Source of the DNA: a virus
Lineage: Duplodnaviria > Caudoviricetes
Virus record (IMG/VR): IMGVR_UViG_3300028888_000078
Coordinates: 1-64,000 of that record
Reading direction: 5' to 3' (one strand)
DNA length: 64,000 nt
In this document: piece by piece, positions 12,992 to 39,208 of the stretch
How the letters are laid out: every line of letters begins with the position of its first letter
Numbering within the stretch: position 1 is the stretch's first letter
The notes under the pieces: generated by a model
Seen by the model: the letters and a program-made list of their open reading frames with translations, nothing else
The model's database searches: none
What the model was told of the DNA's origin: nothing
Program-made: the position numbers and the translations under genes

Positions 12992-13063
12992 GGTCCCATC
13001 GTCTATCGGTTAGGACGAGAGATTTTCATTCTCTAAAGAGCAGTTCGACTCTGCTTGGGACTA
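12992..13063 (+). tRNA. tRNA-Glu(UUC)
   Basis: Canonical cloverleaf GGTCCCA/TGGGACT, anticodon loop TTTTCAT, GTTCGAC T-loop. Confidence 0.93.
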
Positions 13064-13146
13064 CAATTACAGGTCTTTTCCAAGTCTTCCTTAAAGACTG
13101 GATCAAAAAACTTATAAGTTTTAACAATTCTAAATTTTATCAAAAA

Positions 13147-13683
13147 ATGAAGAAGAAACTAATTTTCTTTCTGTGCAGCATGTTTATGCTTGCACTTGGC
13201 TTCTCGTCTTGTGGTGAGAAAATGCCAAAAGCCTGGACACAGGCTGAAATTGAAGAGATTGCAGACCAATCTGCTCGTACAGTCTACTATGAGCTGACTA
13301 ATCCGACGTTTGAAAACGTTGGAGATGTTGCTCACTATCGCGAAACGATAGAAGATGGTGAGTCTATTGATAGCGTATTCTCTATGCTATCGACAGCAAC
13401 ACTAAAACGAGTAGCAGACGTATGTATCAACAAATCGGGGATCACCGACAAGAAACAGATTGTTCAAGAATACTTAAAGAACAAATCTGTATATTCTAAT
13501 ATGTCACCAGATCCAGTTTCAGCAGATTCTAAAACAGACAAGCCTGCAACCGATAGCGGAGGATCGGACGTTACCAAAAAAGACGGTGTGTTCGAGACAA
13601 GCTATAACTACTACGCCGACACGATTGACGGTAAGCCGGTTAAGGTGCAGGTAAAAACAGAGAAGAGCTATGTCAAACAATAA
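13147..13683 (+). CDS. Putative lipoprotein
   Basis: MKKKLIFFLCSMFMLALGFSS-C signal peptide II/lipobox. Confidence 0.8.
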   Translation: MKKKLIFFLCSMFMLALGFSSCGEKMPKAWTQAEIEEIADQSARTVYYELTNPTFENVGDVAHYRETIEDGESIDSVFSMLSTATLKRVADVCINKSGITDKKQIVQEYLKNKSVYSNMSPDPVSADSKTDKPATDSGGSDVTKKDGVFETSYNYYADTIDGKPVKVQVKTEKSYVKQ

Positions 13684-14176
13684 CGAACCACGCGCTCTTG
13701 TCATTGTATGGCAAGGGAAAGAAGTGCCAGATGAAGTTGTTGCTGAAATGGTAGCAATGATGGCACAGTGTAATGCTACGATACCAGAATTGGTAACTGC
13801 AAAGCAATTTGACGCAGATGGTCTTGCCAAGTGTATTGGTAACACAATACACATTGAAGGTTCTAATATCCTCAACAACAAAGACCTCGATCCTATTTAT
13901 AACGCAATCGTTTTTATAGGAACTAAGTATAAGGAATGCCTAGGCAATACCGGTACGTTTTCTATCCATTTGTCATCTGACTTATCAGATGAGAAATATA
14001 AACGTGCAACAGGAAAGCCCGCAGATGAGGGTCTTATTACAGCAGTAGAAATACTTGCTACAAAGACCGTATCATCTAAATACGCCCCATTTCTTAACGA
14101 ATACGGCATAAAAAAGAGCATTCTGGAGGTTATTCACAACACCTATATGTATTACAACCATGTGTTCGTATCATAA
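13670..14176 (+). CDS. hypothetical protein
   Basis: ORF track. Confidence 0.75.
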   Translation: MSNNNEPRALVIVWQGKEVPDEVVAEMVAMMAQCNATIPELVTAKQFDADGLAKCIGNTIHIEGSNILNNKDLDPIYNAIVFIGTKYKECLGNTGTFSIHLSSDLSDEKYKRATGKPADEGLITAVEILATKTVSSKYAPFLNEYGIKKSILEVIHNTYMYYNHVFVS

Positions 14177-14323
14177 CGGTAACAAAAGGCGTGAAAAACC
14201 ACAATACGCCAAGGAGCAGCATAAAAATGCTGTTCCTTATGTAAGAAAAAAGTACACAAACGCTGATTATCGGCGTGAGTATGCATAAACTTTAAGTTAT
14301 TAACAATTAAACATTTATCAAAA

Positions 14324-14986
14324 ATGGCAAAAGACAACAAAACCCAGGAGCCGGTAATATTGACACCGGACAACATCGTTGAACAGCGTAAGGCTGGTAA
14401 CATTCTTACCCCCGAACTTCGCAAGAAGATGGAGGAAGACAACAAGAAGGAGAATGACGAGAAGATTATCCGCGAGACAAACCGCCGTATTTCGTACATC
14501 GGTTTCAAGCACGATTCAGGTCTGATCGAGCTGAAGAAGATGCGCGCCATGGATGATCTTGCACTGTACAACACCCGCCAGCAGGGCCGATTGATGAGAT
14601 TCATCACCGGATTCACACTGACCGACCAGGTGCTCCACGAGTATGCAGAGAAGACGGCAGATGACGTGCTGCAGCTCGAGAAGGTGGAGAAGGATACGCT
14701 GGTTCTTCTTGTTCCTGAGTCCGACAAGAACGGCAAGGTTACCCGCAAGGAGACCAAGTTCAAGGTGGGCGACGATGTTCCCGCCATCATAGACTACAAC
14801 GAGTTTGATGATGGCTTGGAGAAGCTGCAGAAGAATCTCCGCGAACGCCAGGAGAAGATCGAGAAGCAGTATAACGATGACATGCTCGTTATCAAGAAGG
14901 CTGCTGGAGAATACTGGCGAGACGATTGGATGTACAATGTCCGTGTTGTATCGGGCACTGGTGCATCGACAGATCGTCGCTGGTAA
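14324..14986 (+). CDS. hypothetical protein with GC3-rich codon bias (probably highly expressed)
   Basis: ORF track; dominated by AAG/GAG/AAC codons; TTATCAAAA leader. Confidence 0.85.
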   Translation: MAKDNKTQEPVILTPDNIVEQRKAGNILTPELRKKMEEDNKKENDEKIIRETNRRISYIGFKHDSGLIELKKMRAMDDLALYNTRQQGRLMRFITGFTLTDQVLHEYAEKTADDVLQLEKVEKDTLVLLVPESDKNGKVTRKETKFKVGDDVPAIIDYNEFDDGLEKLQKNLRERQEKIEKQYNDDMLVIKKAAGEYWRDDWMYNVRVVSGTGASTDRRW

Positions 14987-15024
14987 GCAACTATAGCTAG
15001 CGATAGCTAAGTGAGCACTCATCC

Positions 15025-15373
15025 GTAGAGTTCGAGCCTTGAGCCAATGCTCTACACCAAAAAGAAAGCAGACTACAGTATTTTTTGAAACCTCGCCAAG
15101 TAGGAGTAAAGCTTAAAAATATTTACAAATCTACAGTGCGATAAAAAAAGACACTCGCAATCTTACAACAGTAGAATAAACTACACATAATCCGAGCCTT
15201 GAGCCAGTATTATGGGATGATACCACCGTCCACACGGTGTAATAATATGTGGGCATTAGATCAAAAATCACGAATTGTAGCGAGCCTTGAGCCTGCTATT
15301 GCACTGCAATGATTTCAAGAATGCAGAATACGTCCTATTGAGAGCCTTGAGCCAGTGATAGACCAACGTATTC
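15025..15373 (+). repeat. Array of four stem-loops each displaying GAGCCTTGAGCC
   Basis: Exact 12-mer at 15034, 15194, 15282 and 15342, each flanked by a different complementary stem. Confidence 0.9.
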
Positions 15374-15487
15374 AACCTTTGTTAAGGTTTATTTAAAGCC
15401 TTTTGAGTTGTTTTTAAGATGCTTGCGGACCAGCTACCCACAAGAGTCTAGAAAACGCCTTAGAAAGCCTGAAAATGGCCTTAAATC

Positions 15488-15584
15488 GAACGTTTTGACC
15501 GATCATCATGACGTTCTGCAACAAGAATCTTAGCGTGTCCTAGAATAAGCTGTTGGACGAGGGGTTCGAGTCCCTCCAGGTCCA
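15488..15584 (+). ncRNA. ssrA: Permuted tmRNA, acceptor piece (3' half of the tRNA-like domain)
   Basis: GCTGTT-GGAC-GAGGGGTTCGAGTCCCTC-CAGGTCC-A; pairs with the downstream GGGCCTG including G3.U70; 5' boundary uncertain. Confidence 0.8.
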
Positions 15585-15781
15585 CTACATATTAGGATTT
15601 ACAGGTCAAAGAGAAGACGGATAATTGTGTAAATAATAGAGGTTTAATAGCTCTACAATACAAAACAAGGTTAAATAGCAAGTAACACCGTAAATGCGAA
15701 ATGGTTAGAGAGTAATCTCGGTAAGCCTTAAATATGGTAAGGTACCTTTGAGTGAAGAACACGATCCTAATATTTTTATAC

Positions 15782-15925
15782 GGGCCTGACTGGATTTGAC
15801 AGCAGTGGAAAGTAAGACATTAAGCGCTTTGATATAAATCTAAACGGCGATTATAATATCGTTGACTACACGGGCCTCAAGGAGGCAGCGTGAAGTCGGT
15901 GCGTACTACCTAAACGCGAACGTTT
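15782..15925 (+). ncRNA. ssrA: Permuted tmRNA, coding piece; predicted tag (A)GDYNIVDYTGLKEAA
   Basis: GGGCCTGACTGGATTTGACAGC tmRNA-type 5' end; tag ORF 15846-15893 ends in Ala-Ala-stop; 3' boundary uncertain. Confidence 0.82.
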
Positions 15926-15948
15926 GAGGGTGTTCCGATAACCCCAAA

Positions 15949-16021
15949 GAGTGAGTTAACTCAACTGGTAAGAGTTCAGATGCTGTCTGAAGACGTGGGT
16001 TCGACTCCCACACTCACTCCA
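15949..16021 (+). tRNA. Atypical tRNA or tRNA-like RNA, anticodon undetermined
   Basis: Good acceptor, D and T arms; anticodon arm TCAGA-TGCTG-TCTGA has a 5-nt loop (or GCU if the register shifts). Confidence 0.6.
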
Positions 16022-16043
16022 ATACAACCAAATTTGAATTAAC

Positions 16044-16922
16044 ATGTTAAACAAATACGATTTTACAAATAACGATGACGTTATCGATTAGCCAAGTATT
16101 CTAAAGATAACCAATAGTCAAGTATCCATCATACATGCTGATGGTATTGACATTAAGGAAATCCCAGAAGAAGGACTAACTATACAAATAGGAAACTTAG
16201 ATTCATTTATTCCTGATACACCTGATCCTATTGATCCTGATGATCCAGAACCAACTCCAAGTCCTGATCCAACACCAGATCCAGACCCAGATCCAGATCC
16301 TGATCCAACTCCTACGCCATCTGGAGATGATTATGCACCTGAAACTACAGTATATAGTACAGCTGAATATACAGGAGGCAATGGAATTAAGTTTATCATA
16401 ACAAATAATACTGGTTCTGAAGCAAGACTTTCGGGAGCAATAACTTTGAATCTATCAAGAAATCAAAACGATTGGACAAACTCAACGCAAGCATACGCAG
16501 ATATAGTTGATACTAATATAGGTATACCTGATCAAGATGGTGATTATCACAAAAATAATATAATTATACCAGTTGGTGAATCTTATACTTCGCCAGAAAT
16601 AACGACAATTACTGGTATATATATGCCTACTACTGATTTTACTGATGGTACTTGGTATTTAATGAATTCGATTTCTCCTACAAACGTTTACGGTTATCCG
16701 ATATTCCTTTATACAAGAGAATATTCAAGATCAAGAAATAAAGTAAGCGGATCTCAGAATATGTATGCAGCAGCTCCTACACAAAATATAAAACTTTTGA
16801 GAGGTTATACATATCATTTGAACCTGTATTGGAAAAATCCATATGCAAGTCTTGATCCAGATAAGAGTGGTACAAATTACATTATATTGGCAGAAAACCA
16901 AACTGATTTATTATCGAATTGA
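16044..16922 (+). CDS. hypothetical protein with Pro-Asp/Pro-Thr linker; one TAG at codon 16
   Basis: In frame with ORF 16446-16922 when TAG 16089-16091 is sense; PDPDPDPTP repeat. Confidence 0.8.
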
Positions 16923-16923
16923 T

Positions 16924-18516
16924 ATGAACAAAGAAGAAATAAAATTAATAGGTCCTGAGATAAAGGCAAAAGCAGGAGAAACAGTTACATTACACGCATA
17001 GTTTGATAAACCATGTTGGTCTTGTATACATGAAAGACGTGAGAAATCAGGTTATAGTCGCATAAATGATTAGCAAGGTAGTAATGAACATATATACAAT
17101 GCAATTGTTCATGAAGATACTACACACTTCATATTTTCAATAGGAGATGAAGGAAGACCTGATTTAGCTATGACAAACAATATTGGTCAATTGTGGTGTC
17201 CTGTAACAATAGAATCTTCACCTGAAGTAAAACCAAAAAATAAAGGTAAATTATTATATAAAATTGGTCTTATTTCTGATATTCACTTTGATGTAGAAGA
17301 TTCCAAAAACTCTGAATATAAGACTGATTTACAGAATGCTCTTGAATACTTCCGCAAAGAAAACGTAGAATGTATATGTTCTTGTGGTGATTTTACTCAG
17401 TATAACGATAAAGATTACGAAGCGTTTAGAGAATACTACAATGCACATGCATGGGCACCATCTGGAGGTAAATTACCCTTATTTACACCAATGGGAAATC
17501 ATGATTATCTAAGAATATATCATCAAAGAACTTCTACACCAACCGGATATGCTTCTACAGAGATGTTATGGCAAAATAATGTATCTGTATTTCATGAACC
17601 AGAAAGCACTATACATTTCTTTGAGTATGGAGCTAAATGGAATGATCCTAAAAAAACAGGAAAAAGAACCATTAAGAGCAAACTCAATTACTGGTTTGAG
17701 AAAAATGATTGTATCTTTGTATTTATGAGTATCGATTATGGAAATTCTACTGGTACTCCATGGGATGATGTATGCAGAGGATTTAATAAACTCGACTATA
17801 ACGATGAGTATGTTAAACAAATGACATCTTATGTAAGTAACACAGGATATAATCGAAGCAAAGAAACAAATTTTGATTATCAGTTCTATAATCCAGAAGT
17901 ATTGATGTGGTTAAAAGATATTATTGAGAATAATAAAGATAAACGAATATTTGTATTTTCTCATCATTTCTTACCACATAAAGCTGGTGACAGCGATGGT
18001 ATCTATTCTCATCTTAGAGTATGGCCATATACAGCATCAAACAGTATTAAAAATAAGTTCTATGCTGGTAGCAATACACTATGTGGATTAACATTCTGGT
18101 TTATCGATAAATTAAACAACGAATACAAAAATGTTGTTTGGTTTAGTGGGCATAGTCATAGATTGTGGAACGATAACACAAGTATATGTAATCATAACTA
18201 TGCTATAAAAACACCAACAGGTAATGAAGTTACTCCACTTGTAGATGACCTCAACTCTCTAAATAATACACCTTATGATTATCGTTTGTATACTAGACAA
18301 TCAAATCAACCATTATCTGAATGCGGATTTTGTATAGGCTTACCAAGTTTATCAAAACCAACAGATAATAATGGTTCTTCTATGTATCAGGCATCACAAG
18401 GTGGTATATTAGAAATATATGAAAACGGTACTACAATAAAAGAAATAAACTTTAAAGACAATAATTCAGCCACATATGTCAATAAAGTTATAAGAGATGT
18501 CGATTTAGACATTTAA
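16924..18516 (+). CDS. Calcineurin-like metallophosphoesterase; TAG at codons 26 and 50
   Basis: SDIH, GDF, GNHD, SHH and GHSH motifs; ATG 1 nt after the upstream stop and in frame with ORF 17170. Confidence 0.88.
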
Positions 18517-28620: not shown

Positions 28621-29361
28621 ATGACACTATCAAAGAGTAAGCTACGTGAGGTAAAATTACGTAAGAAAAAGCGTGCTATAATCGCATCCAGGAACGTCAA
28701 TAATGGCGTTAATAACTTGAAAAAAGGCATGGGAGGCGATAACGGTAATGAGTATTCAGACTTCAAATTGAAGAAGAATCCTCAGCCAAAACGTCTGCAC
28801 CACAGCTATAAGAAATGGAAGTGGGTATCAACGTTCTCAAAAGAGAAAGGTTGGTATACAGAGCGAAAGCTTATTCAGAAGAAATCTGAATATTTCCACG
28901 AAGATCCCAAGAAAATGACTCAACACGAGTATTGGGAGAAGCTTGTACAATACAAGTTGACTAAATGGGATAGTAAGCATCCTAAGCCTGTGTTAGATAA
29001 CGACCTGTTCAAACAGGAAGATCTGACAAAGTGGAATGCAGAACGCGATATAGCAGAAGAACGTATACGGGACTTTGTTGTCTCAGTGTATGACAAACTA
29101 CATCTTGTTGGTCGTTTTAAGACGGCTGATGGGAAGTTCGAAGAAAAAGAAGTGGCTGTTATAAAAGACATCAATGGAGAAGGACACAACGTCAACAATC
29201 TTCCCAAAGATTCTAAGCTACTAAAAAAGGTCCAGAAAATTACAGATACTATTCATGCAAAACATATGAATCTTGTGTCTACTAATTTAAAGGATCATAA
29301 ACAACAAAAAGGAAGGATATTTCTTCCAACAAATCTTATGATGATGCGTAAAGCAGCATAA
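28621..29361 (+). CDS. basic hypothetical protein ending RKAA
   Basis: ORF track; GAAAGGAGGT Shine-Dalgarno-like sequence upstream. Confidence 0.82.
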   Translation: MTLSKSKLREVKLRKKKRAIIASRNVNNGVNNLKKGMGGDNGNEYSDFKLKKNPQPKRLHHSYKKWKWVSTFSKEKGWYTERKLIQKKSEYFHEDPKKMTQHEYWEKLVQYKLTKWDSKHPKPVLDNDLFKQEDLTKWNAERDIAEERIRDFVVSVYDKLHLVGRFKTADGKFEEKEVAVIKDINGEGHNVNNLPKDSKLLKKVQKITDTIHAKHMNLVSTNLKDHKQQKGRIFLPTNLMMMRKAA

Positions 29362-29559
29362 ATAAGAAATACGCTACCAGAGTTAATAGAATAGAGCTGT
29401 CACGGCTGCTCACCTGATATAAAGTGAGTAACAAATGTGTAAAGACTTATTTATTTAAGACTATTCAGTGATATTAACGTTAGGATGGTTCTTTGTAAAT
29501 GAAACAAAGAGGAGTTCGATTCTCCGGCGTATACAATTAATCTTTAGAACCTTTGAGTC

Positions 29560-31446: not shown

Positions 31447-31479
31447 TAACCAACTTGAGAACCAAAGAGTCAGTAAGCT

Positions 31480-32043
31480 ATGATTATTGAAGTAAACACA
31501 AAACTCTTGGATGAATTTCCAGAGTTAAACTCAAGTCAGTTAATTTTCCTAAGTGTGATATTGGATAAGAATCAACCAAAATATCAAGACGTCCGCAAAG
31601 TTGTCAGCCTTATTAACGACGAAGATATATCACACTTAATTTCTCAAGAACTAGTAACCACGATAGAGAGCGGTGAGTCAATTACATATCAAGCTACAGA
31701 TAAGCTTAAGCAAGCTGTAGCTAACGAGAAGGATTATTTTGATCTATTCTATGATATGTACCCAGTGTATGTAATGCGTACAGATGGCAGTAAATGCTAT
31801 TTGCGAGCTAATGTAAACAAATGTCGTCATTTCTTTAACACTAAATGTGGAAGAAGTTCAGCTATGGCAGAACATATAATCAAATGTCTCGATTATGAGA
31901 TATCCAAGCGAATGCGCGAAGGAAGTTTGAGTTATATGATGACTATGTGGAATTGGTTAACGCGTTCACAATGGGAAGCGATTGAGGAAGAAATGCAAGA
32001 TACAGCAAAAACTGTAAATTCTTATGGAACAGAACTTATCTAA
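31480..32043 (+). CDS. Putative replication protein (initiator or loader-like; function uncertain)
   Basis: Between polymerase and helicase; FDLFYDMYP motif as in phage replisome-organizer-type proteins. Confidence 0.55.
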   Translation: MIIEVNTKLLDEFPELNSSQLIFLSVILDKNQPKYQDVRKVVSLINDEDISHLISQELVTTIESGESITYQATDKLKQAVANEKDYFDLFYDMYPVYVMRTDGSKCYLRANVNKCRHFFNTKCGRSSAMAEHIIKCLDYEISKRMREGSLSYMMTMWNWLTRSQWEAIEEEMQDTAKTVNSYGTELI

Positions 32044-33477: not shown

Positions 33478-33494
33478 TAAAAACAATAGAACCT

Positions 33495-34241
33495 ATGAGT
33501 CTAACATTACCTACATCAAAGATTCCAGCAATCTCTACTAATCCTCAATATCTCGTATTGTACGGCTTGCCTAAAGCGGGTAAGACGAGTGCTCTTGCAC
33601 AACTTGACAATAACTTGATTATAGATCTTGAGGGTGGATCTCAGTTCATTGATGCTATGGCTGTACAAGCTAGAACTATCAATGATTTGGGAGAGATTGC
33701 TCAAGCCATTAGAGCTAAGAATGCTGAAGTAGGGCATAATTTCTATAAACACATTACAATAGATAATGCAACACGTCTTGAAGATATTTGTATGTCTTAT
33801 GCTTGCACCCTTTACAGAAAGACCGAATTGGGCAAAAACTGGAAAGGAGACGACGTTACTACGCTCGCTCGTGGAGCAGGTTACAAGTATTTAAGAGATG
33901 CCGTCAAGAAGGTAATTGATATGTTCAAGGACCTTTGTGACGAATTCATTCTAGTTGGTCATGTCAAAGATAGTCTCACCGATAAAGACGGGCAAGAAGT
34001 CAACGCAAAAGAGATCGACCTCGTCGGAAAACTTGGAAAAATCGTTTGCGGAATGGCTGATGCAGTCGGATACGTTTACAGAAAAGACAATGAAACTCAC
34101 ATTAGCTTCAAGTCTGGAGGAGACGGGACTATTATGGAAGCTCGTGCCAGACACATTGCAGGTAAAGATGTTGTTATCGCCACTGGAAATGAAGACGGAA
34201 GTATAACAACCTATTGGGATCGTATTTATAAGCCCGAATAA
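33495..34241 (+). CDS. Sak4-like/AAA_24 ATPase (ssDNA annealing)
   Basis: YGLPKAGKTS, IIDLEGG, ITIDN, LVGH motifs; adjacent to an SSB-like gene. Confidence 0.8.
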   Translation: MSLTLPTSKIPAISTNPQYLVLYGLPKAGKTSALAQLDNNLIIDLEGGSQFIDAMAVQARTINDLGEIAQAIRAKNAEVGHNFYKHITIDNATRLEDICMSYACTLYRKTELGKNWKGDDVTTLARGAGYKYLRDAVKKVIDMFKDLCDEFILVGHVKDSLTDKDGQEVNAKEIDLVGKLGKIVCGMADAVGYVYRKDNETHISFKSGGDGTIMEARARHIAGKDVVIATGNEDGSITTYWDRIYKPE

Positions 34242-34279
34242 TTCAGAATCGAAGAATCAGTAATTAAAAGGAAGAAATT

Positions 34280-34897
34280 ATGTATAGTACAAAAACAGCA
34301 ACAACAAATAATAGCGAATTTACAAGTTCGTATATGCCTGTAGGCATCAATGAGAATATCACTCTGAAAGAAGTAAATGTTAATAAATCACCTCAAGGTC
34401 TTGACTTCCTGGAAATTGTATTTCAGAATAGTGAAGGTCAGACAGTAACTATGACTGAGTGGAAGAATACTAAGAATATGTGGATTAAGACCGACGAGGA
34501 TTTGCAGCGTCGTGATAATCAGCAGTTTGGTCGTATTCTGCAAGTTATAGATGCAGTTAAGGGTAGTCATGGAGATTTTGAAGGTGCTTCGTTTATTGAA
34601 ATGATTACTTGGGCTAAGGCATGTCTTGCTGGTGACAGTAAGAATGTACGTCTTAAGGTGATTTACGATAAGAAGGGTTATACCACTGTCTCGAAGAATG
34701 GTATATTCATTGAGTCTATGGATGTTGCAAAAGAAGAGTCTCAGATTAAGCTTTGGAAGAATGATCTTCTGGAGCGCCCTGTACAGGCTGATGTCGAAAA
34801 GCCTGTTGATCCGCTTGTTGCAGCTGCAAATGAAGCAATTGCACTCAACACTCCGGTGACTGCAGACTCTACAGGTGCTGACGACCTGCCATTTTGA
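34280..34897 (+). CDS. Putative single-stranded DNA-binding protein
   Basis: C-terminal ADDLPF acidic tip; follows the Sak4-like gene. Confidence 0.72.
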   Translation: MYSTKTATTNNSEFTSSYMPVGINENITLKEVNVNKSPQGLDFLEIVFQNSEGQTVTMTEWKNTKNMWIKTDEDLQRRDNQQFGRILQVIDAVKGSHGDFEGASFIEMITWAKACLAGDSKNVRLKVIYDKKGYTTVSKNGIFIESMDVAKEESQIKLWKNDLLERPVQADVEKPVDPLVAAANEAIALNTPVTADSTGADDLPF

Positions 34898-36792: not shown

Positions 36793-37159
36793 AAATGCGA
36801 CGAAGGTCGATGCGTATGGGCTACATTTCCGTAGCAAACTCGAACTCTATACGTATGAAGCTTTTATGAAAGCAGGAATACCTGTTAAGTATGAGCCAAA
36901 GCATTTTGTCCTCCTACCAAAGTTCGAATTCCTTGGAGAGAAAATACGTCCTATCACATATCTCCCTGATTTCATCGGGAGAGGTTTTGTGGTAGAATGC
37001 AAAGGTCTTATGGGAGATTCTTTCCCTTTAAGATTTAAACTCTTCAAATATTACCTCAAGAAACATAGATCTAAGATGAAGTGCTATTTAGTACGAAATC
37101 ATAAGCAGGTCGATGAAATGATTGAGGACATTATTAAGAACCAAAAGAGTCAAAAATAA
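36770..37159 (+). CDS. PD-(D/E)XK endonuclease (DUF1064/T7 endonuclease I-like, possible resolvase)
   Basis: FRSKLE...YLPDF...VECKG motif. Confidence 0.82.
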   Translation: MKSSGRVKNATKVDAYGLHFRSKLELYTYEAFMKAGIPVKYEPKHFVLLPKFEFLGEKIRPITYLPDFIGRGFVVECKGLMGDSFPLRFKLFKYYLKKHRSKMKCYLVRNHKQVDEMIEDIIKNQKSQK

Positions 37160-37950: not shown

Positions 37951-38189
37951 GTTTAGAAGAAGCTAATCATTATGTAAAATTCTTCATTGAATATAGCCCA
38001 AGCGGATGGTTCTTTACGGTCAACACATGTAGACCGTTTGGAACTATCGTTGGATATAATAAATTCCCTACTGCTGATGAAGCAGTAGAAGAACTTAAGC
38101 AGTTTTTACGTTATTTTACTGAGAACGTGCTTAAAGATGGAGATACGATACGTAAATTTGTTGAGAAACACAAACCAAAGAAAGAATGA
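37947..38189 (+). CDS. hypothetical protein
   Basis: ORF track; ATGA overlaps at both ends. Confidence 0.72.
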   Translation: MSLEEANHYVKFFIEYSPSGWFFTVNTCRPFGTIVGYNKFPTADEAVEELKQFLRYFTENVLKDGDTIRKFVEKHKPKKE

Positions 38190-39208
38190 TGGACACATCA
38201 ATCCCCTATTACTCAGATGTCTCGCGCATCAGTAATTCGAACATAGGCTGGTTTCTGCAGAAGGGACCAGCCTTTTTACATAAGATGCTTACTGATCCTC
38301 CACCAGAGGAAAAGAATAGTATCTTAGAACGTGGGACTATGATCCACATGTTCATTCTCCAGCCCGAAGAGTTCCAAAAGACATACGTAGTCTGGGACAA
38401 AAGTAGACCTTCTTCAGCACAGCAGGAGAAGTTCTGTCAGGAGCTGGCTAATACGTTAGAAATAGAGCCAAATAGAGCCATTCTAAGCGCATATCAGGCT
38501 GCCTATAGTATAAAAGGTAAGTCTGAAGAAACAATGCTGTCAGAAGGCATTAAAATAGCCTCTACGTTGAAGGATTACATAGACTTCCTGAAAGCAAATG
38601 ATGGAAGAACTATGATAACTCCTTGGGATGCTAAAATGCTTGAGAAAATTAAGCAAAACATCGAATCTCACAAACTTGCAAATATGATAATTAATCCATG
38701 TTTTGAATACAAAGATAAAACTTTATATTTAAATTATGTAAAAAATTATCATGAATTCCATATAAACTGGGAATTTCAAGTAAAGATGAGTGGTGGGTAT
38801 GTACATTGTAAATCATTACTTGATGGTCTTACTCTTGATTTTAAGAATAAGAAAGCTATCATATATGACTTAAAGACTACACAAAAGCTGTGGCACTTTG
38901 AGGATAGTATAAAGCAGTATGATTATTGCAGACAGTTAATGTATTACACAATGGCTGTACAATGGTATTTAAAGAATGAATGTAATGAATCTTTAAAAGA
39001 TTGGTCTTTTGAATGGTATATTATTGGAATTGATACAACAGGTTCCAATGAAATACGTACATTTAAATTTACAGAAGATCAAATATATTCTCATTCTGAT
39101 ACTATAGAATACGCAATACGAGATATATGGTGGCACCAAACTACTGGTAAGTGGGATCATAGTAGAGAATATTATGAAGGCGATGGTTCCGAGTCTTTGA
39201 ACCTGTAA
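38186..39208 (+). CDS. PD-(D/E)XK exonuclease (RecE/ExoVIII-like)
   Basis: ISNS, GTMIH, CKSLLD, YDLKTT, YCRQLMYY motifs. Confidence 0.85.
   Translation: MMDTSIPYYSDVSRISNSNIGWFLQKGPAFLHKMLTDPPPEEKNSILERGTMIHMFILQPEEFQKTYVVWDKSRPSSAQQEKFCQELANTLEIEPNRAILSAYQAAYSIKGKSEETMLSEGIKIASTLKDYIDFLKANDGRTMITPWDAKMLEKIKQNIESHKLANMIINPCFEYKDKTLYLNYVKNYHEFHINWEFQVKMSGGYVHCKSLLDGLTLDFKNKKAIIYDLKTTQKLWHFEDSIKQYDYCRQLMYYTMAVQWYLKNECNESLKDWSFEWYIIGIDTTGSNEIRTFKFTEDQIYSHSDTIEYAIRDIWWHQTTGKWDHSREYYEGDGSESLNL

Follow-up and report, generated by a model that had tools for sequence, protein, structure and literature searches.

The window, by which we mean the whole 64,000-nucleotide stretch of DNA that was analysed, is part of a 103,414-bp virus record (IMG/VR record IMGVR_UViG_3300028888_000078) from a gut (crAss-like) phage. 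The region of interest is a tract located between an ORF and a circularly permuted, two-piece tmRNA gene that is followed by a tRNA-Ser gene (Table 1). The tmRNA gene was called by ARAGORN, with the tRNA-like 3' half upstream of the 5' half and a reading frame for the tag GDYNIVDYTGLKEAA, and the Rfam model tmRNA_permuted matched 15536-15893 at 40.9 bits, below its gathering score of 47. The nearest named phages are cr273_1 and cr272_1 (Crassvirales, Suoliviridae, Buhlduvirus), in which the homologous gene is annotated as tmRNA in RefSeq. Elsewhere in the window, a tRNA with the anticodon CUA, labelled Pyl by ARAGORN, is an amber suppressor and fits TAG reassignment in part of this phage's genes.

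Table 1. Coordinates of the features discussed in the text, numbered from the first letter of the window.
Feature	Position	Strand	Details
tRNA, anticodon CUA	1614-1688
tRNA-Glu	12992-13064
Upstream ORF (candidate reader 1)	14324-14986
Hairpin 1	15025-15055	+	Stem GTAGAGT 15025-15031 with GCTCTAC 15049-15055 (7 bp); module GAGCCUUGAGCC 15034-15045
Hairpin 2	15186-15214	+	Stem CATAAT 15186-15191 with ATTATG 15209-15214 (6 bp); module 15194-15205
H-type pseudoknot	15224-15253	+	Between hairpins 2 and 3; stem 1 pairs 15224-15228 with 15235-15239; stem 2 pairs loop bases 15229-15233 with 15249-15253
Hairpin 3	15277-15299	+	Stem GTAGC 15277-15281 with GCTAT 15295-15299 (5 bp); module 15282-15293
Hairpin 4	15326-15373	+	Outer 8-bp stem GAATACGT 15326-15333 with ACGTATTC 15366-15373; inner 5-bp stem CTATT 15335-15339 with GATAG 15357-15361; module 15342-15353
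Structured linker	15397-15535	+	Between hairpin 4 and the tmRNA P2/T-arm; long irregular hairpin around the invariant AGCUACCCA loop and a second hairpin
Permuted tmRNA gene	15495-15984	+	T-arm and 3' acceptor end near 15584; 5' acceptor starts near 15782; tag ORF 15846-15893
tRNA-Ser	15950-16020
ORF-poor tract	22924-25247		About 2.3 kb; ends at the fifth hairpin
Fifth hairpin	25118-25144	+	Stem CGTTC 25118-25122 with GAACG 25140-25144; GAGCCTTTGAGCC at 25126-25138; array type (GC core, 3-nt spacer); about 110 nt before the next ORF
222-aa ORF (candidate reader 2)	25248-25916
T-arm-like sequence	29500-29540		GGAGTTCGATTCTCC followed by GGCGTATACA; directly before the PolB hairpin
Module at PolB	29547-29559	+	GAACCUUUGAGUC, directly abutting the start codon (29560); flanking stem UAAUC/GAUUA covers the start codon
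Module at 187-aa ORF	31459-31471	+	8 nt before the ATG of ORF 31480-32043
Module at Sak4-like ATPase gene	33489-33501	+	Contains the ATG (33495)
Module at ORF 34280-34897	34246-34258	+	GAAUCGAAGAAUC, 21 nt before the ATG
Module at AAA ATPase / clamp-loader-like gene	37138-37151	+	4-nt spacer; 7 nt before the ATG (37159)
Sequence inside ORF 38186-39208	38465-38479		GAGCCAAATAGAGCC
Module at end of ORF 38186-39208	39191-39203	+	GAGUCUUUGAACC; in relatives 1 nt before the ATG of a gene of about 160 aa that this window lacks

An earlier note, made from the sequence alone, had described four hairpins in this tract that display one 12-mer on unrelated stems, with a fifth copy further downstream, and this observation was confirmed. 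The 12-mer GAGCCTTGAGCC occurs four times, starting at 15034, 15194, 15282 and 15342, on the + strand only. With one mismatch allowed there were still only these four matches, against 0.16 expected, and none of 100 shuffles reached four. The complete 103-kb genome contains no further copy and none on the minus strand. All stems named in the note are present, and a stem finder gave 7, 6, 5 and 6 consecutive pairs for the four hairpins. The folding energy of the whole tract was not significant (z = -1.41), and the support comes instead from comparison with relatives.

To identify relatives, we searched with the upstream ORF, with a conserved 18-mer and with an anchor pattern located between the array and the T-arm. 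This yielded about 20 distinct contigs, including cr273_1 and cr272_1, that carry three or four such hairpins at the same place upstream of the tmRNA. Five of the ten hits to the 18-mer were chance matches in coding DNA and were discarded. Other viral contigs with two copies of the 12-mer were also rejected as unrelated: in two of these, from unrelated phages, the 12-mer overlaps a terminator stem or a heptamer repeat, and a third is a tandem GAGCCTT repeat. A scan of bacterial genomes for paired 12-mers gave at least 120 hits, but those inspected were tandem heptamer repeats or leucine-rich-repeat coding DNA, and the scan gave no information about hosts.

Comparison of the arrays showed that the loop generalises to GA-NN-C-(2-5 nt)-GA-N'N'-C, in which NN and N'N' are reverse complements and covary. 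Among 61 array hairpins, the core was GC/GC in 44 instances, AC/GU in 10, GU/AC in 6 and GA/UC in 1, and the cores AU/AU and UA/UA were also seen in the full set of sites. The loop is accordingly not simply single-stranded but holds a covarying 2-bp helix flanked by invariant G, A and C, with two pseudo-twofold symmetric halves. Relatives keep the loop and change the stems, which nevertheless still pair: the outer stem is at least 5 bp in 41 of the 61 array hairpins, as compared to 19% at random positions. For example, the hairpin homologous to hairpin 1 in four of the contigs (L007, L015, L018 and L028) has a different stem and the same loop, L018 carrying the compensated variant GAGUC..GAACC. 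In several relatives hairpin 3 sits inside a longer outer helix with an inserted hairpin, and each pair of the outer stem of hairpin 4 has 2-7 sequences with compensatory changes. Mini-ORFs and ACCA tails that follow the hairpins in this window are present by chance and are not kept in relatives, and no conserved ORF follows the four array copies.

The array is embedded in a conserved structured RNA of roughly 500 nt. In an alignment of 15 loci, the sequences between the hairpins were better conserved than the hairpin stems, and the stretch between hairpin 4 and the T-arm was the best conserved of the locus. RNAalifold identified several helices with compensatory changes in this stretch, reaching as far as the T-arm. 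To examine the pseudoknot between hairpins 2 and 3, we compared its ten pairs with shuffles. In total, 84% of cells were paired against 61% in shuffles (0 of 500 shuffles reached this value), nine of the ten pairs showed compensatory changes, and sliding the partner lowered pairing to 31-44%. The conserved RNA runs directly into P2 and the T-arm of the tmRNA, which in a permuted gene is the place where the pseudoknot domain (PK2-PK4) of an ordinary tmRNA would lie. The upstream domain showed no BLAST similarity to the PK2-PK4 region of host tmRNAs, such that its equivalence to that domain rests on position only. The Rfam permuted model covers only the tRNA-like domain and leaves out the protruding 5' and 3' regions (PMC11915505). 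Thirty sampled Bacteroidales host tmRNAs carried no GA module and resembled the phage RNA only in the acceptor and T-arm parts; the module is therefore a phage invention and not an inherited tmRNA feature. In two relatives (L015:7085-7137 and L018:11676-11728), the tmRNA T-loop is interrupted right after GGTT/GGTC by unrelated sequence, possibly an insertion such as the T-loop group I introns reported for tmRNA genes (PMC11915505).

The region appears to be transcribed. Rumen and gut metatranscriptome contigs cover it in one piece: in four runs from different studies (sheep gut and other gut samples), single contigs span 13077-15890 (run X1, no differences from the window), 13078-15902 (run X6), 13674-16010 (run X4) and 13278-16309 (run X3). 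In X1, X4 and X6 these contigs are 2-8 times deeper than their neighbours, which argues for RNA rather than carried-over DNA, although contigs cannot show strand, ends or level. The contigs of X1 and X6 begin at 13077/13078, just after tRNA-Glu, and end at 15890/15902, at the stop codon of the tmRNA tag, a weak hint of processing boundaries of one precursor that carries three ORFs, the array and the tmRNA; depth gaps and contig ends were otherwise not used as evidence. One low-depth contig in X1 (depth 2.1) joins 15585 to 15778 with 12 other letters in between, removing the intervening segment of the permuted tmRNA, which could reflect a strain with a shorter segment or a processing product.

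The note had also claimed that related motifs lie at the starts of replication genes, and we therefore searched for the paired module outside the array. In this genome it occurs 23 times on the + strand and 9 times on the minus strand, whereas shuffles gave 5.4 and 7.0. In 80 PolB loci of relatives (996 kb), there were 327 paired matches on the + strand and 45 on the minus strand, while control motifs with GU, GC or GG in place of GA gave only 15-30 on the + strand. Of the + strand hits, 43% were located within 60 nt before an ORF start, as compared to 8.7% at random, with a peak at 0-8 nt. Near start codons, 78 of 80 distinct matches had both inner pairs, against 24% elsewhere and 14% by chance. 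The same genes carried the module each time: PolB, the 187-aa gene after it, the Sak4-like ATPase, a gene of about 200 aa, an AAA/clamp-loader-like ATPase and a gene of about 160 aa. At PolB it is conserved with compensated variants (GAGUC..GAACC, GAAUC..GAAUC) in most loci examined. An array-type hairpin corresponding to the fifth copy is also present in relatives, 99-110 nt before the homologous 207-224-aa ORF. The start-codon copies mostly have an AC/GU core and a 3-nt spacer, and their outer stems are weak: only 38% reach 5 bp, against 19% in controls, and in 37 of 94 cases the stem covers the ATG, the start codon lying in its 3' strand. The array copies, with a G-C core and longer stems, look like stronger versions of the same site. 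The sequence inside ORF 38186-39208 (Table 1) is kept in all relatives, including those without start-codon copies, and probably reflects conserved coding sequence rather than a functional site. Many relatives show a T-arm-like sequence at the same place as the tRNA-like T-arm and 3' acceptor in front of the PolB hairpin, where neither ARAGORN nor Rfam calls a tRNA.

The distribution of the two types of sites differs among relatives. Four genomes of one clade (G001-G004, of which G001 and G003 are complete) have the tmRNA and a three-hairpin array, but their PolB regions carry no start-codon copies and their genome-wide pattern counts are at the level of the control pattern. The array is thus more widely kept than the mRNA sites and always travels with the tmRNA, and titration of those sites cannot be its only or original role. 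Besides the lack of the module in the sampled host tmRNAs, two observations are suggestive of a shared, evolving reader. One genome (represented by contigs L029/L102) uses 4-5-nt spacers both in its array and at its start codons, and in G003 all three array modules (L123:1028-1431) read GUGCC-UU-GUGCC, a concerted change of an otherwise invariant A in both halves of every copy, although this could also be a purely structural compensation.

No candidate binding protein emerged from our searches, and no family-library match was found for the 25 window proteins scanned. The basic proteins at 27433-29361, suggested in the note, match no family. The syntenic upstream ORF has no Pfam or PHROG match, and its AF2 model (pLDDT 79) shows long helices plus a small sheet, for which Foldseek found no PDB match. 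The ORF that follows the fifth hairpin seemed by tblastn to be missing from the genomes without start-codon copies, but a profile search identified diverged homologues in all of them, which voids the correlation. Its AF2 model (pLDDT 77), an alpha/beta domain plus one long helix, gave no fold match by Foldseek or VIA-align, the best Z being 3.6 and from coiled-coil hits only. Neither of the two modelled proteins has a recognisable RNA-binding fold. No match to the Pfam SmpB model was detected in the phage genome.

The note interpreted the array as a CsrB-like decoy RNA, and this interpretation is only partly supported. None of three outcomes named in advance as refuting it was observed, since the region appears transcribed, the motif is one-stranded and the stems are kept in relatives; the conserved loops on free stems support an RNA-level element shared with the replication-gene starts. 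The label CsrB-like is, however, only an analogy, because membership of the CsrB/RsmZ family fails on the motif and on the Rfam scan. The loops read GAGCCUNGAGCC, that is GA-NN-C twice, with no GGA (ANGGA) core, and an Rfam scan of 13500-18000 at E up to 10 found no Csr/Rsm family and no match at all in the array tract 15000-15465. Nor did Rfam match the region around the fifth hairpin, or the ORF-poor tract at E up to 1. Like the CsrB/RsmZ sponge RNAs of CsrA/RsmA, several hairpins display one short motif that is also found at the ribosome-binding regions of putative target mRNAs, and the logic would be the same if the array titrates a reader, but here the motif is a structured module with a 2-bp helix, the array is part of a tmRNA-linked structured RNA, and some relatives have the array but no target sites.

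The start-codon copies resemble phage translational operators, such as the MS2/PP7 coat-protein operator on the replicase start and the T4 RegA and gp43 operators, in that a small hairpin with sequence-specific loop nucleotides overlaps or abuts the start codon of replication genes. They differ in the RNA module, in that a whole set of 6-7 genes carries it, and in that extra copies are clustered on a non-coding RNA; repression would be an inference by analogy, and an activating role is not excluded. The array domain shares with the PK2-PK4 domain of tmRNA, and with the two-piece tmRNAs of Alphaproteobacteria, one betaproteobacterial lineage and cyanobacteria (PMC11915505), the position just 5' of P2 and the T-arm in a permuted gene, a covarying H-type pseudoknot and helices, and contigs from RNA libraries that also cover tRNA-like and tag-coding parts, but it carries 3-4 copies of a module that the sampled host tmRNAs lack. 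K-turn and K-loop (L7Ae-type) motifs likewise have two conserved GA dinucleotides next to a short helix in a hairpin. By inspection of the 61 array instances only, the arrangement does not fit their consensus of a C-stem, a 3-nt bulge and tandem sheared G.A pairs, since both GA dinucleotides lie 5' of the two strands of the same 2-bp helix and no 3-nt bulge is followed by GA. Literature searches on tmRNA, stem-loops and translational control in Crassvirales and on two-piece or permuted tmRNA found no description of this motif.

Our preferred explanation, which we consider about as likely as not, is that the module is the recognition site of one trans-acting reader, for which we favour a phage-encoded, possibly dimeric, RNA-binding protein. 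In this view the module would act as a translational operator at the replication genes, and the 3-4 stronger copies on the tmRNA-linked RNA would form a multi-site platform for the same reader, which could compete with the mRNA sites as a decoy or timer, could load the reader onto the tmRNA, or both. A titrating role is plausible but unproven. The analysis itself establishes the structure and its covariation, the strand specificity and conservation, the linkage to the tmRNA, the presence in RNA libraries and the position at start codons. That a reader exists and binds, its identity, any effect on initiation and the direction of regulation are inferred, as is the retention of the 5' domain on the mature tmRNA.

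Alternative explanations appear less likely but are not excluded. The array could be an independent decoy RNA, as proposed in the note, whose only job is to titrate the regulator of the start-codon sites and whose position next to the tmRNA is incidental, for example due to a shared promoter. The stronger array copies, the shared module and the spacer lengths that co-vary within one genome are compatible with this, but we consider it unlikely because the array is always fused to the same structured linker and the tmRNA, persists in genomes without mRNA sites, is covered by RNA contigs that run into the tmRNA, and is not followed by a conserved terminator before the T-arm, as judged by reading the sequence and alignment. 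Similarly unlikely is a factor-free structural cap, that is an unusually stable or nuclease-resistant loop fold that would build the scaffold of the tmRNA 5' domain in place of pseudoknots and close cis-acting hairpins that damp initiation at replication genes. The internal covarying pairs, the twofold symmetry, the arrays without operators and the GA-to-GU changes in both halves at once would fit, and UUCG-capped hairpins recur in T4 intercistronic regions. However, five invariant, non-Watson-Crick nucleotides kept across a family-level divergence are more than stability usually demands, all copies in a genome share the same spacer length and half-site type, and the restriction to one gene class argues for regulation.

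It is also possible, though improbable, that the modules are cut by a phage or host RNase in a RegB-like or RNase III-site-like manner, which would release the tmRNA acceptor piece from its precursor and inactivate replication-gene mRNAs late in infection. The precursor has to be processed, since it holds tRNA-Glu, ORFs, the array, the two-piece tmRNA and tRNA-Ser, and the mRNA sites overlap the start codons, but the conserved structure between the hairpins suggests that a stable product is kept rather than a spacer to be discarded. The unbroken RNA contigs across all four hairpins are only weak evidence against cleavage, because contigs hide it. Very unlikely, finally, is a DNA-level element, such as iterons of a replication or packaging origin or hairpin promoters on single-stranded DNA, despite the repeated motif in an ORF-free tract and the existence of N4-type hairpin promoters. 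The cumulative GC skew has no extremum near 15 kb, its maximum being at 39 kb, the covarying stems, inner helix and pseudoknot fit a folded single strand, the mRNA copies abut the ATG too closely for a promoter with a leader, and transcripts read through the array.

A more far-reaching and doubtful possibility is that these phages have fused a translational-control device to their ribosome-rescue RNA, with high-affinity mimics of the start-codon operators on the 5' domain of the tmRNA. The amount of tmRNA-linked RNA would then set, through a new dimeric RNA-binding protein that reads the pseudo-symmetric GA-NN-C module, when the replication genes are translated, a regulatory role for a tmRNA domain that would have no precedent.

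Crassvirales are among the most abundant phages of animal guts, and almost nothing is known about how they time gene expression. Their Bacteroidales hosts are reported to make little use of Shine-Dalgarno pairing and to lack Hfq, ProQ and CsrA. The occurrence of one module both at the start codons of the whole replication module and, multiplied, on a structured RNA joined to the phage's own tmRNA points to an undescribed translation-control circuit with an inferred binding factor, and gives a concrete, testable entry point into post-transcriptional control in these phages. The finding also bears on what phage-borne tmRNAs are for, and it would enlarge the phage 'minimal' two-piece tmRNA by a structured 5' domain of about 500 nt that current models do not cover.
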